Both the position numbers and the translations under genes were made by a program. A DNA stretch of 64,000 nucleotides. Source: Eubacteriales bacterium. Its GTDB lineage: Bacteria; Bacillota; Clostridia; Peptostreptococcales; Anaerovoracaceae. Numbering within the stretch: position 1 is the first letter of the stretch; each line of letters starts with the position of its first letter. This document shows, piece by piece, positions 24,414 to 44,102 of this stretch. Location of the stretch: positions 6,769-70,768 of the forward strand of contig JAQWFH010000001.1 of the NCBI GenBank assembly GCA_028704515.1, given 5' to 3'. The notes beneath the pieces were generated by a model. The model saw nothing but the letters and a program-made list of their open reading frames with translations, was not told where the DNA came from and did no database searches.

Positions 24414-25162
24414 TTCACCCTCTCCTTTCTGAGGCTTTCAAAAAGTTTTTCGCGAAGCTCGATGATAGGCTGGGTTGCAAGGTCTTCCCTACGTCTGGGA
24501 TAGGGGAGAGGAACAGAAATCTCGTCCATCGAACGGAACGGAACGGATCGTATTACAAATATAGTCTTTGATAAAAATATTGCTTCCTCCACATCGTGTG
24601 TAATAAACAAAATGCTTTTGTTGTAGTGCTCCCATTGCTGGAGGAGCCATTCCTGCATATTTATTTTTGTTAGATAGTCCAAAGCACTGAACGGTTCGTC
24701 GAGGAGGAGCATATCGGCTCCGGCAAGCAGAGTTCGGGCAAATGATACACGCTGGCGCATACCTCCAGACAACTCGTGGGGCATCTTATCTGCATAATCC
24801 GTAAGCCCTGCATTTTTAAGCACATCCAAACAACGAGATTTACGTTCCGATTTCGGGATTCGCGCAAGCTCCATAGGCAGGCATACATTCTTCCTTACAC
24901 TGTGCCACGGGAAAAGAAGATCCTTTTGAGGCATAAATGAGCTGTAGTTATGAAGCTTTTCTATAGGTGTATCATCAATCGTGATACTGCCTTTCTCCGG
25001 CTTTTCCAGACCGTTAATCAGACGAAAAATTGTGCTTTTCCCGCAGCCACTGGCTCCTATTATAGAAATAAAATCGCCCTGAGCTACCGAAAAGCTTAAA
25101 TTCTCCATTATAGGCCCGATATCTCCGGGATACGTAAATGAAACATTATTAAATGAAAGCAT
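24410..25162 (-). CDS. ABC transporter ATP-binding protein (ThiZ-like)
   Basis: Walker A GASGCGKST, signature LSGGMRQR and Walker B LLLDEPFSALD. The start at 25162 (MLSFNNVSF) sits just after the tenA stop. Confidence 0.85.
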   Translation of the reverse strand: MLSFNNVSFTYPGDIGPIMENLSFSVAQGDFISIIGASGCGKSTIFRLINGLEKPEKGSITIDDTPIEKLHNYSSFMPQKDLLFPWHSVRKNVCLPMELARIPKSERKSRCLDVLKNAGLTDYADKMPHELSGGMRQRVSFARTLLAGADMLLLDEPFSALDYLTKINMQEWLLQQWEHYNKSILFITHDVEEAIFLSKTIFVIRSVPFRSMDEISVPLPYPRRREDLATQPIIELREKLFESLRKERVK

Positions 25163-28882: not shown

Positions 28883-29908
28883 ATGGCTATTAAAATTGGC
28901 ATCAGTGGGTTCGGACGTATAGGCAGAGTGGTAATTCGTGCGGCGGTTAATGATCCTAATATTGAAATTGCGGGAATAAATATCCGTAATGCTGACAACG
29001 ATTATCTTGTTTACATGTTAAAGTACGACTCTACATTCGGAAGGTTTCCAAAGAGCCTTGATACTTATGAGGGTGGAATTGTAATCGACGGTAAAAAAGT
29101 ACCTGTTTATAGCGAGACGGAAGCTATTAACATACCTTGGAAGGAATGTGGTGCAGAGTATATAGTAGAAGGAACCGGAGCTTATGCAACCACTGAAAAG
29201 GCCAGAGATCATATCAAGGCGGGGGCAAAGAAGGTAATCATTACCGCACCTGCAAAGGATGGAACAACTCCTACATTTGTAATGGGTGTTAATCACGAGG
29301 AATACAAGTCTGAGTATCAGGTAGTTTCAAATGCATCCTGCACTACCAACTGTCTTGCTCCGATCGCAAAGGTGCTGGAAGACAATTGGGGCATTGAGAG
29401 CGGTCTTATGTCAACAATCCATGCCGCTACGTCAAAGCAAAAGGTTGTCGATTCGCGTTCAATGAAGGACTGGAGAACAGGAAGATCGTCTTTTGGAAAC
29501 ATCATACCGTCAACAACAGGCGCAGCGAAAGCCGTTGGAATTGTAATTCCTTCACTTAAGGGTAAGCTGACGGGCATTTCATTTAGAGTACCGGTTGCAA
29601 ACGTTTCCGTAGTCGATTTGAATGTACAGCTAAACAATCCAACTACGTATGAAAAAATATGTGAGAAGATAAAAGAAGCATCGGAAACACATTTAAAGGG
29701 TATAATTGAATATATCGATGATGAGGTCGTATCTAGTGATTTTATAGGCGATCATCATACGTCGATTTTTGATTCAAAGCAGGGAATAATGCTCAATGAC
29801 AAATGCTTTAAGGTAATAGCTTATTATGATAATGAATACGGATATTCTTACGCTACACTTTCCATGATAAAGCATATGTACAATGTTGATAACAACCTCA
29901 ACAAATAA
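28883..29908 (+). CDS. gap: Glyceraldehyde-3-phosphate dehydrogenase, paralog 1 (E. coli GapA/eukaryote-like clade; lacks the NAD-discriminating Asp)
   Basis: GFGRIGR, active site SNASCTTNCLAP, KDWRTGR, WYDNEYGYS. The dinucleotide-fold segment reads GINIRNADND instead of AINDL. Confidence 0.9.
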   Translation: MAIKIGISGFGRIGRVVIRAAVNDPNIEIAGINIRNADNDYLVYMLKYDSTFGRFPKSLDTYEGGIVIDGKKVPVYSETEAINIPWKECGAEYIVEGTGAYATTEKARDHIKAGAKKVIITAPAKDGTTPTFVMGVNHEEYKSEYQVVSNASCTTNCLAPIAKVLEDNWGIESGLMSTIHAATSKQKVVDSRSMKDWRTGRSSFGNIIPSTTGAAKAVGIVIPSLKGKLTGISFRVPVANVSVVDLNVQLNNPTTYEKICEKIKEASETHLKGIIEYIDDEVVSSDFIGDHHTSIFDSKQGIMLNDKCFKVIAYYDNEYGYSYATLSMIKHMYNVDNNLNK

Positions 29909-29950: not shown

Positions 29951-30961
29951 ATGCGGACGAAAGTCGGAATTAATGGGTTTGGAAGAATAGGCAGAAATAT
30001 GCTTAAAATTGCGCTTGATAAGAATGTAGATTTTGAAATTGTTGCAATAAACGATCTTACCGATGCGAGGACATTGGCTCATCTTCTAAAGTATGATAGC
30101 TGCTTCGGTAAATTTAACGGAACCGTTACTCATACCGACGACGCAATAATTGTAAACGGCAAAGAGATAAAAGTTTTTGCGGAGAAAGATCCCGCCGAAA
30201 TCCCATGGGGAAAATACGGGGTACAGATTGTTCTTGAATCTACGGGGGCCTTTAAGAAAAGAAAGGACGTTTCCAAACACTTTGGTGAGACAGTAAAAAA
30301 GGTAGTAATATCGGCACCTGCAGAGGATGAAGATATTACTGTTGTTATGGGTGTAAACGATGAGAAATACGAGGCTGATAAGCATCATATTATTTCAAAT
30401 GCATCCTGCACGACCAACTGTCTTGCACCTCTTGCCAAGATTGTCGATAATGAATACGGTATAGTGCAAGGGCTCATGACTACAATCCATTCATATACGA
30501 ATGACCAAAGAATACTTGACTTGCCTCATCGTGATTTAAGAAGATCCAGAGCCGCGTGCTTATCGATGATTCCCACAACGACGGGAGCGGCGAAGGCAGT
30601 GGAGCTTGTGTTGCCGCAGCTCAAAGGAAAGCTCAATGGCATTTCTATGAGGGTTCCCACTCCCTCTGTATCGGTAGTTGACGTTGTTATCGAGCTTGAT
30701 AAGGTTGTCACAAAAGAAACAATCAATCAAACGATAAAAAGAGCATCCGAAACCTACATGAAGGGTATTATGGGATATTGCGAAGAATCCTTGGTATCCA
30801 TAGATTTCAAGGGTGAGGAGTTTTCGGCGATATTAGATAGCAGAGCCACGATGGTTTTGAAGGGCAATATGGTGAAGCTTCTGGCGTGGTATGACAACGA
30901 ATGGGGTTATGCATGCAGAGTAGTAGATCTCATAGGCCACATAATCAAAGGTGGTTTATAA
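29951..30961 (+). CDS. gap: Glyceraldehyde-3-phosphate dehydrogenase, paralog 2 (typical Firmicutes GapA-like, NAD signature AINDL)
   Basis: GFGRIGR, AINDLTD, SNASCTTNCLAP, DLPHRDLRRSRAA, WYDNEWGY. Confidence 0.9.
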   Translation: MRTKVGINGFGRIGRNMLKIALDKNVDFEIVAINDLTDARTLAHLLKYDSCFGKFNGTVTHTDDAIIVNGKEIKVFAEKDPAEIPWGKYGVQIVLESTGAFKKRKDVSKHFGETVKKVVISAPAEDEDITVVMGVNDEKYEADKHHIISNASCTTNCLAPLAKIVDNEYGIVQGLMTTIHSYTNDQRILDLPHRDLRRSRAACLSMIPTTTGAAKAVELVLPQLKGKLNGISMRVPTPSVSVVDVVIELDKVVTKETINQTIKRASETYMKGIMGYCEESLVSIDFKGEEFSAILDSRATMVLKGNMVKLLAWYDNEWGYACRVVDLIGHIIKGGL

Positions 30962-34636: not shown

Positions 34637-34668
34637 CAAGAGGTATCGCTGATACCTCTTGTGTTTTA
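34637..34668 (+). terminator. Rho-independent terminator after secG
   Basis: CAAGAGGTATC-GCT-GATACCTCTTG stem followed by TGTTTTATT. Confidence 0.7.
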
Positions 34669-34689
34669 TTACAGCGGAGGTACAAAAAA

Positions 34690-36747
34690 ATGACAGTTTT
34701 GAAAATTGCGGCTATTGTTTGCGCTTTTGTCGGACTTTTTGTTGCATACAGTCTTTTAAGATGGGTTGGAAGCCTCGAAATCGAGAATGAAGATATGAGG
34801 GCTATATCCAAAAAGATTAAGGAAGCCTCAAAGGCATTTCTTTTGCGCGAATATAAAGGTATACTCACGCTCATAATCATATTATTTATTTTTATAACGA
34901 TTGCTCTGGGTTTTAAAATATCAATCTCGTATTTAGCCGGTGTTCTAATTTCGATGATATCAGGGTATCTTGGGGTAAGTGCAGCAGTAAAGGGTAATGC
35001 AAGAACTGCGAGCATTGCTACTACTCAGGGGCTTAAATCCGCGACGAAGGTAGCCTTCAGATCAGGGGCGGTTATGGGACTGAGTGCTGCGGGTCTGGGA
35101 CTTGCCGGAGTAAGTATTGTATATTTCATCTTCGGTACGAATTGTACATATTATATTGTGGCATTTGCTCTTGGAGCCTCGACTGTCTCGCTGATGTCTC
35201 GCATTGGCGGCGGAATATACGTAAAAGCGGCTGATGTCGGCTCAGAAGTTGTTGGAAGAATAGAAGAAGATTTGCAAGAGGATGATCCGAGAAATCCTGC
35301 TATGCTGGCCGATAAAGTAGGTAAAAGCGTAGGTGGCGTAACGGGGATAGGGCTTGATATGCTCGAATCATATATGAGCGCTATTATTGCAGCTATAGTA
35401 ATTGCCATAATAATGCCATCGGTGGATCCGGAACTGGGGGCGGCGTTTGAAATTTCGGCCGTAGGCGGGAGCTTGTTCCCAATTGCAATGGCATCTATCG
35501 GAATATTATCATCAATTATAGGTATTTTTGTGGTGAGAGGAAGTGAAACTTCAAATCCCGCAATTGCTTTGACAAGATGTTTTTTGGTCAGCGAGTCTAT
35601 TGTGATAGTATCAGCATTAATATTGAGTGGTATACTTTTTGGCAATGTTTACTGCGGTCTTTCCGTAATCGTCGGCATACTTGCCGGAATTGGTGTCGGG
35701 AAGTCTATAACTGTATTTACATCGGAAGGACATAAAAATTTCAGTCACCTTATGAGCTCCTCGAGTCTGGGCTCCGGGACGCTAACGGTGTTTGGGATAG
35801 CACTTGGGATGATGTCGACAGTCTTTCCTATTTTATGCATAACGGCAACCATAGTTATAGCAAATTATTTTGCGGGTATCTACGGAGTTGCACTTGCAGC
35901 TGTAGGTATGACGGCAAATATGGCTATATCCGTTGCAATAAACGCATGCGGTCCTATCGCGTACAATGCAAGGGGAATTGCGGAAACTACAGGTGTTCCG
36001 AACAAGCTACAGGCAATAGTTGGAAAACTAAAGCTGATAGGAGCCGAGACGATAAAAATTGAGCGCGGTGTTGCTATAGCTTCGACTGCAGTGACTGCAT
36101 TTGCGCTATTCATAATATATATACAAGTTATAAATATGACCGGCGGGGAGCAATATGCCGGATTCTCATTAAACCTCATGAATCCTATTGCATTGGCAGG
36201 CCTACTTATTGGAGGAATAATTCCTTTTGTTGTTTCGGCGCTTACAATGAACGCGGTCGGTAAGGCTGCCAGAAATATGATATATGAAGTCAGAAGACAG
36301 TTTAAGAAAACGAAAGAGATGCCGGGCAGCGAAATAATTCCGGATTACGCAAAATGTGTAGACGTATCTACAAAAGCTGCTATAAATCAGATGCTTCTTC
36401 CAGGAGTTATGGTTATGGCAACGCCTATATTGGTTGGGATTCTGCTAGGCTGTGAGGCTCTCGGAGGCATGATTGCAGGAGCGATTTGTACGGGTGTCAT
36501 TCTTTCCACAATGATGCTGAATTCAGGAGAAGCGTGGAATAATGTTAAGCACAAGCTGGATTATACCAACAGAGGTAAAAGCGTTGACGAAACATATAAA
36601 GCTGCTGTTGCGGGGGACCTCTTGGGCGATACATTTAGGGATATCACGGGACCTGCTATAAACATCGTTATTAAGCTCGTTACAATCATATCCATAGTAT
36701 TTTCGGCATTGTTTATAAAAGTTGGCGGATTAATAAATTTTTTGTAA
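34690..36747 (+). CDS. Membrane-integral pyrophosphatase (H+/Na+-PPase, HppA) family homolog with substituted catalytic motifs
   Basis: 685 aa, about 15-16 TM. Family motifs are present (AFLLREYK, GGGIYVKAADVG, EDDPRNPA, GDLLGDTFRDITGPAINIVIKL), but several canonical acidic positions are replaced (see findings). Confidence 0.8.
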   Translation: MTVLKIAAIVCAFVGLFVAYSLLRWVGSLEIENEDMRAISKKIKEASKAFLLREYKGILTLIIILFIFITIALGFKISISYLAGVLISMISGYLGVSAAVKGNARTASIATTQGLKSATKVAFRSGAVMGLSAAGLGLAGVSIVYFIFGTNCTYYIVAFALGASTVSLMSRIGGGIYVKAADVGSEVVGRIEEDLQEDDPRNPAMLADKVGKSVGGVTGIGLDMLESYMSAIIAAIVIAIIMPSVDPELGAAFEISAVGGSLFPIAMASIGILSSIIGIFVVRGSETSNPAIALTRCFLVSESIVIVSALILSGILFGNVYCGLSVIVGILAGIGVGKSITVFTSEGHKNFSHLMSSSSLGSGTLTVFGIALGMMSTVFPILCITATIVIANYFAGIYGVALAAVGMTANMAISVAINACGPIAYNARGIAETTGVPNKLQAIVGKLKLIGAETIKIERGVAIASTAVTAFALFIIYIQVINMTGGEQYAGFSLNLMNPIALAGLLIGGIIPFVVSALTMNAVGKAARNMIYEVRRQFKKTKEMPGSEIIPDYAKCVDVSTKAAINQMLLPGVMVMATPILVGILLGCEALGGMIAGAICTGVILSTMMLNSGEAWNNVKHKLDYTNRGKSVDETYKAAVAGDLLGDTFRDITGPAINIVIKLVTIISIVFSALFIKVGGLINFL

Positions 36748-36813: not shown

Positions 36814-37059
36814 ATGAAATCAAGAATAATTCTTTGCCTTTTATTAATCATGACAGTGCTTACTTTCGGTGCATGTGGTGATACCACGCCGGAAAATGTT
36901 GTTGACGACAACGATAACGTTGTGCAGAAGGATATGGATGAAGCCGTAGATGATGCACAGGAAGAAGTCAACGATATGGATGGTAAGGATACAACACAGC
37001 GCGGACCTGTTGAAAACAATCCGGATGTAGATAATAATAACAATTCTACTAATGAGTAA
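36814..37059 (+). CDS. Small acidic D/N-rich lipoprotein, function unknown
   Basis: ATG at 36814 with AGAGGAG RBS. Signal peptide plus lipobox LTFGAC. The mature part is low-complexity and acidic. Confidence 0.5.
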   Translation: MKSRIILCLLLIMTVLTFGACGDTTPENVVDDNDNVVQKDMDEAVDDAQEEVNDMDGKDTTQRGPVENNPDVDNNNNSTNE

Positions 37060-42569: not shown

Positions 42570-42692
42570 TACAACTTGCCGTTGCAATATTTATTTGCTA
42601 TAAGTACATAAATGATTTAAAATATAAAGCAGTGTTATTTTTTAAAAATTCGCACGGATATGTTATTTAATCGAGAAGGAGTGCTTACATTT

Positions 42693-44102
42693 ATGAAAAT
42701 TAAACGTATTGTTGGGGGAAATCTTGAAAGCAACACGTATGTTATATACCAAAAGGGAGGAGCGAATTGCTTCGTAATAGATCCGGGATATAATGCGGAG
42801 GCAATTGCTGGCATTATAATAGAGGAGGGGTTATTTACACTCGGCATTATTTTAACCCATTGCCATGCAGACCATACGGGCGCGGCAAAAAAACTAAAGG
42901 ATAGGTTCGGATGTAAGGTATACATACACAGGGAGGATATGGACAGGGTTTGTGATATTGCCGATGTCTCCCTTGAGGATGGACACGTGTTTGACCTTGA
43001 CGGAGAAGAAATTCGGGTAATCCATACTCCGGGGCATACGCACGGGGGAATATGCTTGTATTCAGAAAGAAGCAAGCTGGCGTTTACAGGAGACACTCTG
43101 TTTAATGTAGATTTAGGAAGAACAGATCTTGAAGGCGGAGATGAAGAGCGCCTTACAAATACATGTGTGCAAATAATAGATAAATGGCCAAACGATATAA
43201 CAGTATATCCAGGCCACGGTGATTCCTGCAATATGAAGTTTGTGCGCAGAAATAACGAAGAATTCAAGGCAGCAATCAAGCCCGATATAAAGATGATCGC
43301 CCTTGATTTAGATGGCACAACGCTTACGACTAACAAAGAAATTACTGACAGAACGGCCGATGCTTTGTCATCCGCAATGAAGAAGGGCATTCAAATAGTA
43401 ATCGCTACAGGCAGGACATATTCGTCAATACCGGACAAGGTGTTGAATATAAGGGGAATGGAGTACATAATCACCGGCAATGGGGCCGCGGTGACCAGAT
43501 TGAAAGACGGTAAAATAATATACAGCAATTTCATCGATGCATATGCAATGGAAAATATGACCCAAATATTCAAAAGGGAAAGGTCAATGCTTGAATTATT
43601 TACAGGAGGAAGAGCATATATCGAAAGAAGCCTGCTTGAAAGCCTAGAACAAAAGAACTTCAGAAAAACCCACATAGAATACATCAGGGAAACGAGAATT
43701 GCCAAAGAAAATATAATTGAATTCATGATTGAAAACAAATCAAGGATTGAAAATATCAATCTTTTGTTCGAAAATCAGGAGGACAGAGCAAGGATGAGAG
43801 GTGTCATGGAAGCGGTTAATGACGTTACTGTAACAACATCGTTTGATCACAACATAGAGATCGGAGGAAAGACGACCAGCAAGGGTGATGCAGTAAGATT
43901 CCTTTCCGGCAGATTGGGAATGAAAAGGGAGAATGTGATGGTGTTCGGAGACGGCCATAATGATATGAAAATGTTTGAATTTGCCGGCTTCCCGGTTGCA
44001 GTTGAAAATGCAAAGCCGGAGCTTAAAGAAGTGGCAAAGTTTGTAACGGCCAGTAACATTGAGGATGGTGTAGCGAAAGCTATAGAGCGTTTTGTTCTTT
44101 AA
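42693..44102 (+). CDS. Fusion protein: N-terminal MBL-fold metallo-hydrolase + C-terminal Cof-type HAD-IIB phosphatase
   Basis: N-terminal THCHADHTG (HxHxDH) and HTPGHT. C-terminal IALDLDGTTL (DxDGT) and GDGHNDMKMFEFAG (GDxxND). One uninterrupted frame. Confidence 0.8.
   Translation: MKIKRIVGGNLESNTYVIYQKGGANCFVIDPGYNAEAIAGIIIEEGLFTLGIILTHCHADHTGAAKKLKDRFGCKVYIHREDMDRVCDIADVSLEDGHVFDLDGEEIRVIHTPGHTHGGICLYSERSKLAFTGDTLFNVDLGRTDLEGGDEERLTNTCVQIIDKWPNDITVYPGHGDSCNMKFVRRNNEEFKAAIKPDIKMIALDLDGTTLTTNKEITDRTADALSSAMKKGIQIVIATGRTYSSIPDKVLNIRGMEYIITGNGAAVTRLKDGKIIYSNFIDAYAMENMTQIFKRERSMLELFTGGRAYIERSLLESLEQKNFRKTHIEYIRETRIAKENIIEFMIENKSRIENINLLFENQEDRARMRGVMEAVNDVTVTTSFDHNIEIGGKTTSKGDAVRFLSGRLGMKRENVMVFGDGHNDMKMFEFAGFPVAVENAKPELKEVAKFVTASNIEDGVAKAIERFVL

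Follow-up and report, generated by a model that had tools for sequence, protein, structure and literature searches.

We describe a relative of the membrane pyrophosphatases (M-PPases) that has apparently lost its hydrolytic function, encoded in a 64,000-nucleotide stretch (the window) of contig JAQWFH010000001.1 from an Eubacteriales bacterium of the Anaerovoracaceae. The gene is an intact open reading frame (ORF) at 34690–36747 on the forward strand (ATG at 34690, stop at 36745–36747), and its 685-residue product has the M-PPase fold with a degenerate hydrolytic centre. Comparison with relatives on balance favours a pseudoenzyme, derived in place from a K+-dependent Na+-translocating hppA of Anaerovoracaceae-like Clostridia. 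Two hallmarks of a pseudoenzyme are found: the protein descends from an active enzyme whose catalytic residues have been replaced, and purifying selection has continued after that loss.

Profile and helix count agree in placing the protein in the M-PPase superfamily (PF03030; fold of PDB 4AV3 and 4A01). The match to PF03030 is full-length (598.7 bits, cut-off 29.7; positions 2–645 of 645 in the profile), and a phmmer search of PDB sequences returned T. maritima TmPPase (4av3, E 7e-105) and V. radiata VrPPase (4a01), with collinear alignments over the full length. An AlphaFold2 model (predicted local distance difference test score 85.5, predicted TM-score 0.89) has 16 long transmembrane (TM) helices; it was computed from an alignment of 38 relatives and, these being canonical, is biased towards the canonical fold. 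Foldseek gives it a TM-score of 0.91 to TmPPase, with 0.86–0.91 across imidodiphosphate- or inhibitor-bound chains of TmPPase, VrPPase and PaPPase and 0.79 to the 4 Å structure 4av6. The 685-residue ORF, the full-length profile match and the 16-helix model bear out an earlier inspection of the letters alone (the sequence-only reading), which had called fold and reading frame intact. A Shine–Dalgarno sequence, GGAGG, can be read directly from the sequence 9 nucleotides 5′ of the ATG (34676–34680, forward strand).

The product is identical to GenBank MDD4389207.1, named there ‘sodium-translocating pyrophosphatase’. It passes the NCBIfam model NF001960 (Na+-translocating pyrophosphatase equivalog, EC 7.2.3.1) with 644 bits where 546 would suffice, and falls below the cut-off of all 12 sister models. 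The NF001960 cut-off lies far under those of its sisters (652–1321 bits); because this is the sole model that the degenerate protein passes, PGAP names it an active Na+ pump. The pass accounts for the GenBank name and is silent on catalysis.

The catalytic motifs are substituted, as the sequence-only reading had proposed. HMMER alignments to TmPPase 4av3 and VrPPase 4a01 set DKVGKSVGG (residues 208–216) against canonical DNVGDNVGD, VGSEVVGR (183–190) against VGADLVGK, NACGPIAYNARGIAET (418–433) against DAYGPISDNAGGIAEM and AWNNVKHK (615–622) against AWDNAKKY, while AFLLREYK, GGGIYVKAADVG, EDDPRNPA and GDLLGDTFRDITGPAINIVIKL are retained. The helix-12 segment KLIGAETIKIERGVAIASTAV (448–468) is the counterpart of DxxGNTTAAxGKGFAIGSAAL; here the earlier reading had rightly seen an altered motif and quoted it two residues short, so that the position of the first Asp is held by Lys448 and not by Ile, which leaves its conclusion unaffected. 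Misregistration by eye is ruled out by the alignments to the two structures, by three MAFFT family alignments and by the fold model. In a residue-by-residue score against PF03030 and both structures, the protein deviates at 11 of 23 catalytic and gate positions that are retained across diverse M-PPases.

Structure-guided alignment and conserved-column scoring place the changes in three segments, numbered here by a Vr-based map that was derived from the HMMER alignments and recovers the published functional residues. The first (residues 171–223; 35200–35358, forward strand) covers the cytoplasmic end of TM5, loop 5–6 and the start of TM6. It keeps R5.50, K5.58, D5.61, the loop motif EDDPRNPA (E268-D269-D270-P-R-N), D6.35 and D6.50, and carries D5.65E (E186), K5.69R (R190), N209K, D6.39K (K212) and D6.43G (G216, the position of the general base). 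The second (residues 411–462; 35920–36075, forward strand), from the end of TM11 to the start of TM12, shifts in net charge from about −4 to +3 through D11.50N (N418), D11.57Y (Y425), G428R, D12.39K (K448), N12.43A (A452), T453E, A12.46I (I455, at the K+ signature), A456K, G12.49E (E458) and K12.50R (R459). The third (residues 606–655; 36505–36654, forward strand), from the end of TM15 to the start of TM16, carries G614E, D15.61N (N617), K15.65H (H621) and K16.38R (R650) and keeps K15.64, D16.31, D16.35 and D16.39.

The known roles of these residues indicate what such changes may entail. D6.43 and D16.39 jointly activate the nucleophile, and an enzyme left with D16.39 alone is inactive (Li et al. 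2016, PMC5150537); the window protein keeps D16.39 (D651) and has Gly216 for D6.43. The Asp/Asn cage for up to five Mg2+ ions, with its Lys contacts to pyrophosphate (PPi), is likewise incomplete. The K+/Lys signature of the cationic centre, A or K at 12.46 with G, A or T at 12.49 (PMC9408878; PMC10897367), is absent, the protein having I455, E458 and a Lys at 12.47. Because the general base D6.43 and five Mg/K ligands are lost, canonical Mg2PPi hydrolysis by the window protein is unlikely; as far as residue roles can tell, this lends weight to the earlier suggestion of a protein that may not hydrolyse PPi.

Ordinary divergence within the family does not produce such a pattern. Active-site Asp, Asn and Lys residues of M-PPases have been called ‘completely conserved’ (Strauss et al. 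2024, PMC10897367), and among 153 diverse representatives (30–42% identical to the query) 107 show no deviation at the 23 scored positions. Another 45 M-PPases, from GTDB genomes of unrelated bacteria and archaea, show 0–1 deviations each. Conservation across the family, as defined on 123 canonical representatives, reaches at least 90% at 96 columns, of which canonical proteins keep 84–96 (median 93) and the window protein 68; the 28 lost columns fall in TM5, 6, 11, 12, 15 and 16, which form the inner ring of the fold. Eight of the replaced residues (D6.39, D6.43, D11.57, D12.39, N12.43, K12.50, D15.61 and K16.38) are 100% conserved in the 123. General divergence as the cause of the substitutions is ruled out by these three comparisons. 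Homologs with five deviations do occur in a Gemmatimonadetes metagenome-assembled genome (MAG; JAHWJJ010000009.1, locus L059) and a Longimicrobium MAG (DASTLD010000019.1, locus L065), confined to TM12 and TM15 (D12.39H, N12.43K, K12.50T/N, K15.64R and K15.65Q/A); their centre is otherwise intact, which makes them a different, milder variant than the window protein.

Sequences of the window kind are few. A word-index search of 5.8 billion proteins yielded three, in two species-level lineages: two near-identical proteins from NCBI MAGs and one from a Logan assembly (SRR30309623; P0002, locus L001; 81% identity). Neither an HMMER scan of 1.84 billion representatives nor a scan of GTDB genomes, whose representative set lacks the lineage, added further members, and a scan of JGI metagenomes for lineage members returned distant canonical matches only. 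An assembly artefact is ruled out, the gene being present in both NCBI MAGs and, at 81% identity, in the Logan assembly. The second MAG of the same strain (GCA_028680935.1, JAQUJN010000001.1; locus L017) differs from the window at 3 of 13,435 bases. Two of these single-nucleotide differences, at 35048 and 36328, are nonsynonymous in the PPase gene (K120T and S547G) and the third is at 25049, an allocation with P of roughly 0.06 by length, from a count too small for statistics. The next-best matches to the window protein, at 47% identity, bear the names Anaerovoracaceae or Family XIII and are Na+-PPases that are canonical throughout.

These canonical relatives occupy the same place in the genome. 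The order gap-gap-pgk-tpi-eno-secG-X-(small ORF)-rnr, where X is the PPase homolog, is common to the degenerate loci of the window, L001 and L017 and to a canonical locus, L002; the canonical L006 has the same order with a single gap, and L007 matches as far as the PPase. The canonical sister orthologs come from Anaerovoracaceae-like genomes (P0003 at L002, P0012 at L006 in GCA_036659315.1 and P0022 at L007). Between pairs of canonical genomes the PPase is 83–87% identical, with eno at 83–86%, gap at 80–86%, pgk at 65–72% and tpi at 57–68%. Between the window lineage and the canonical genomes the glycolytic genes are equally diverged whereas the PPase is only 46–47% identical, a divergence of the window protein ~3.5-fold above expectation from its neighbouring genes. 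A tree of four glycolytic proteins nests the window lineage among genomes with a canonical PPase, and the stem burst amounts to ~406 excess amino-acid replacements. Judged by sequence and position, the window gene is the positional ortholog of a canonical Na+-PPase, altered in a burst on one short stem. An old paralogous subfamily is ruled out by the synteny, the divergence of neighbouring genes and the glycolytic tree. The ‘diverged clade’ of the sequence-only reading holds in that the gene is not decaying and fails as a deep clade of the family, since there are only three sequences and the gene is an ortholog altered in place.

Scoring the homologs also revealed other degenerate lineages, namely a clade (clade B) and the proteins P0129, P0185 and P0218. 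Clade B comprises at least 8 clusters at 90% identity that are 59–92% identical among themselves (P0121, P0271, P0283, P0284, P0286, P0289, P0291 and P0295; loci L008, L018, L019 and L020). Two of its members, P0121 and P0271, and also P0129 (L009/L010) and P0185 (L012), lie directly 3′ of secG in the same glycolytic cluster; the contig of P0218 (L011) is too short for neighbours. A clade B copy is adjacent to secG in a closed Anaerovoracaceae chromosome (OY782829.1, ~1.745 Mb). The genomes of these other degenerate orthologs group apart in the tree of glycolytic genes, which implies at least two independent degenerations. The proteins are 36–40% identical to the window protein, and copies are intact in all five or more degenerate lineages. 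None of them retains D6.39, D6.43 or D11.57, and the replacements vary by lineage: G, N, E or A at 6.43 and K, V, G, E or A at 6.39. One of these orthologs bears the JGI label ‘K(+)-stimulated pyrophosphate-energized sodium pump’.

What the degenerate proteins keep is the ion gate. In the window protein both halves of the Na+ gate are unchanged: D223(6.50)-M-L-E226(6.53)-S227(6.54) in TM6 (35356–35370, forward strand) and N658(16.46) with K662(16.50) in TM16 (36661–36675, forward strand). This is the full residue set of a Na+-type gate (D6.50, E6.53, S6.54, N or D at 16.46, K16.50), and S5.43 is also kept. D6.50, E6.53 and S6.54 are present in all degenerate lineages, N16.46 in all except P0218 and K16.50 in all except one subclade. 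Over the cytoplasmic halves of the inner ring, the net charge averages −11.7 in canonical proteins (range −16 to −8, n = 112), against −2 in the window protein; all 13 degenerate proteins fall between −5 and +2. Of their conserved columns, the hydrolytic half of the window protein keeps a fraction of 0.53, the gate/exit half 0.65 and the outer ring 0.76 (0.36–0.55, 0.65–0.87 and 0.54–0.78, respectively, in the degenerate lineages). Where the gate/exit half of the window protein has changed, hydrophobic residues are conservatively exchanged for one another, and the least altered helices are TM4 and the dimer-side TM10 and TM13.

We propose the following course of events. On a short stem, some 400 extra replacements, concentrated in the cytoplasmic halves of TM5, 6, 11, 12, 15 and 16, removed the general base D6.43 and the Mg2+/K+ ligands D6.39, D11.57, D12.39, N12.43 and D15.61. 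Lys, Arg or neutral residues took their places, so that side chains may now replace the charge of the Mg cage and the once acidic funnel is nearly neutral. Presumably no Mg–PPi complex could then assemble and no water nucleophile be activated; as the cage cannot form, the PPi-driven pump cycle would be gone. Kept throughout are the 16-helix fold, the dimer-side helices, loop 5–6, TM16 and all polar residues of the Na+ gate. The recurrent preservation of that gate suggests that the retained role involves the binding or passage of cations, and from the residues kept the product probably forms a dimer in the membrane and still uses the ancestral ion path to bind or conduct Na+ (or H+), with no hydrolysis of PPi. 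It could act as a cation channel, a facilitator or a sensor, possibly gated by a metal-free anion in the basic pocket; the remodelled pocket itself may be a self-neutralised plug or a metal-free anion site. More tentatively, and with odds that we put rather low, Na+-PPases at this locus could have been converted in place repeatedly into PPi-independent cation channels, facilitators or sensors; such ‘dead pumps’ would retain just the scaffold and the Na+ gate, their Mg cage supplanted for good by Lys/Arg side chains.

An opposite reading would keep the pump at work. A cation pump driven by PPi or another phosphoanhydride might run on a rebuilt site in which K209, K212, R428, K448 and K456 replace some of the Mg2+ and water is activated by D16.39, either on its own or together with a further base. 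Half the pocket does survive (K5.58, D5.61, D6.35, K15.64, D16.31, D16.35, D16.39 and EDDPRNPA), K16.38R is conservative, the two species of the window lineage conserve the remodelled positions as well, and the family offers a precedent for Lys in place of K+ in A12.46K (PMC9408878; PMC10897367). Against it stand the complete conservation of the eight lost residues in 123 canonical representatives, the 0–1 deviations in 45 unrelated M-PPases, the inactivity of the canonical enzyme with D16.39 alone on the nucleophile (PMC5150537) and the quite different residues that independent lineages carry at the same positions. Such dissimilar replacements argue for loss rather than convergence on a new catalytic design, and we regard a rebuilt pump as unlikely.

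Improbable, too, is a non-catalytic partner or regulator that forms a heterodimer with, or otherwise modulates, a canonical M-PPase whose gene would lie at another place in the genome. Such a role would fit the small alteration of dimer-side TM10 and TM13 (with TM4), and M-PPases show half-of-the-sites reactivity and communication between subunits (PMC10897367). The gene, however, fills the slot of the canonical ortholog instead of adjoining a canonical copy, and no second PF03030 gene occurs within the 64-kb window or in the flanks fetched for the degenerate loci. Nor was a second M-PPase or a soluble PPase found among the 41 of 54 long window ORFs scanned with Pfam and the gap-pgk-tpi-eno-secG-rnr genes identified by tblastn. 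The neighbourhood offers no clue to a new function: the flanking housekeeping genes are shared with canonical loci, and the downstream TrkH/TrkA and CBS genes also adjoin the canonical L006.

Selection on the window gene can be gauged against its 81%-identical relative. The two proteins align without gaps over 685 residues at 80.9% amino-acid identity, with nonsynonymous and synonymous differences per site (pN and pS) of 0.104 and 0.67 (pN/pS 0.155) and a ratio of nonsynonymous to synonymous substitution rates (dN/dS, omega) of ~0.066, a value that is only approximate because dS is saturated (1.7) between the two species. Over the same comparison, the neighbouring genes pgk (0.118) and tpi (0.106) have pN values similar to that of the PPase gene, and the values of gap (0.07–0.08) and eno (0.045) are lower. 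Under neutrality ~120 nonsense hits would be expected along the whole path and ~20 in the stem burst alone; none is observed. At 23 of the 28 replaced family-invariant positions both species carry the same new residue, the replaced positions are as well conserved as the remainder of the protein, and the best-conserved segments between the two are TM16 (0.95) and loop 5–6 (0.92). The rate after the burst, relative to eno, is ~2.4 times that of the canonical orthologs. By these measures, constraint on the window protein is relaxed yet clear.

The marks of a pseudogene, a broken frame or an omega near 1, are not seen: the gene is intact in three assemblies from two species, and the low dN/dS, gapless alignment and lack of stops uphold the earlier judgement that it is not decaying. 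That the gene is on its way out, its selection as a PPase ended and its frame intact by chance or through weak constraint such as avoidance of a toxic misfolded membrane protein, is highly improbable, since the raised rate after the burst, the dN of the other group’s orthologs at 4–8 times that of their neighbouring genes, an omega of 0.19 in a close clade B pair and the two nonsynonymous changes among three between near-identical MAGs are set against an omega of ~0.07 over a path with dS of ~1.7, 685 codons free of stops and indels, replaced positions no less conserved than others, intact copies in at least five degenerate lineages (one a clade with 59–92% internal identity) and a good Shine–Dalgarno sequence.

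Several points nevertheless weigh against a PPi-independent pseudoenzyme that conducts cations. Besides the saturated dS, only two species-level sequences represent the window lineage. Since K5.58, D5.61, D6.35, K15.64, D16.31, D16.35, D16.39 and loop 5–6 are kept, residual binding of PPi or phosphate is conceivable, as is slow hydrolysis in which Lys takes the role of Mg2+. In the window protein, conservation in the gate/exit half (0.65) is no better than in the outer ring (0.76), so that the case for conduction comes down to a handful of gate residues. The other group evolves fast: P0129 (L009) and clade B (L018) are 48.5% identical in the PPase though 92% in eno and 85% in tpi, and their PPase dN is 0.40 against 0.05–0.10 for neighbouring genes. 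The PPase of this pair is an unusually fast-evolving intact membrane protein, and such speed could point to a role that is loose and makes few demands on the sequence, as opposed to a precise new mechanism.

The inferred pseudoenzyme can be set beside known systems. With TmPPase (PDB 4AV3, 5LZQ; EC 7.2.3.1, TC 3.A.10) it shares the 16-TM fold with a collinear alignment, a Na+-type gate (Glu 6.53 with D6.50, S6.54 and K16.50), loop 5–6 EDDPRNPA, K5.58, D5.61, D6.35, K15.64 and the TM16 GDxxGDxxxD motif. It differs from TmPPase in lacking D6.39, D6.43, D11.50, D11.57, D12.39, N12.43, A12.46, G12.49 and D15.61, in having Arg for K5.69, K12.50 and K16.38 and His for K15.65, and in a funnel charge of −2 against ~−12. 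The canonical sister hppA orthologs, its nearest relatives at 46–47% identity, have the same slot after gap-pgk-tpi-eno-secG and the same hairpin in the spacer, and keep all 23 scored residues where the window protein deviates at 11. With the other degenerate orthologs it has in common the loss of D6.39, D6.43 and D11.57, a neutralised pocket and retained D6.50, E6.53 and S6.54; these differ in their independent origin, other replacement residues, a deletion around D16.31, K15.64E and weaker constraint. Pseudoenzymes are paralogs or orthologs that have lost catalysis and are retained to bind, scaffold or regulate, and CFTR among the ABC transporters exemplifies the conversion of a pump into a channel. 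The window protein may be analogous to both, with catalytic residues lost and the fold under purifying selection; unlike pseudoenzymes in general it is an ortholog replaced, not a duplicate, and comes without a known partner or new activity.

The spacer between secG and the PPase gene holds a hairpin, CAAGAGGTATC-GCT-GATACCTCTTG with a T-rich tail (34637–34671, forward strand). Its AAGAGGT/ACCTCTT stem, a pair resembling a Shine–Dalgarno and an anti-Shine–Dalgarno sequence, is conserved 5′ of canonical and degenerate orthologs alike (spacers of the window, L001, L002, L006, L007, L009, L012 and L018). The hairpin lies 20–40 nucleotides 5′ of the PPase start in most loci and ~90 in L018, and the T-run is found only in some. 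An Rfam search with the spacer hairpin matched no family; the hairpin may be the terminator of secG or serve the PPase gene as leader or attenuator.

Elsewhere in the window, tandem glyceraldehyde-3-phosphate dehydrogenase genes (28883–29908 and 29951–30961) precede pgk-tpi-eno, an arrangement also present in L001, L017 and the canonical L002 and absent from L006, L007 and L009. Between the PPase homolog and rnr, a small ORF (36814–37059, forward strand) encodes a probable lipoprotein that matches nothing in Pfam; its signal peptide ends LTFGAC, and its tail is very acidic and rich in Asp and Asn. An unannotated small ORF directly 5′ of rnr is also found in L001, L017, L006, L009 and L018. A single 480-residue ORF at 42660–44102 (forward strand) joins a metallo-beta-lactamase domain (residues 21–161) to a Cof-type HAD phosphatase domain (213–475).

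Searches of open-access full text, most of them aimed at degenerate or pseudo M-PPases, turned up no description of such proteins; subscription journals may contain mentions. M-PPases are regarded as a family with completely conserved active-site Asp, Asn and Lys residues, every homolog of which is annotated as an H+ or Na+ pump. The window ortholog is a natural counter-example, its residues lost and its sequence still selected, with at least one further independent case at the same locus. The degenerate proteins are probably misnamed as ‘sodium-translocating pyrophosphatase’ and ‘K+-stimulated pyrophosphate-energized sodium pump’, an error that would extend to metabolic models in which such anaerobes export Na+ at the expense of PPi. 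With an ion path naturally separated from the hydrolytic centre, these proteins are useful for weighing binding-change against direct-coupling models and for asking whether the gate conducts without PPi. They also provide a clear example of the passage from enzyme to pseudoenzyme by replacement of an ortholog, not by duplication. If the conversion to ‘dead pumps’ is true, the M-PPase fold would have a second, unrecognised function in Anaerovoracaceae-like anaerobes.

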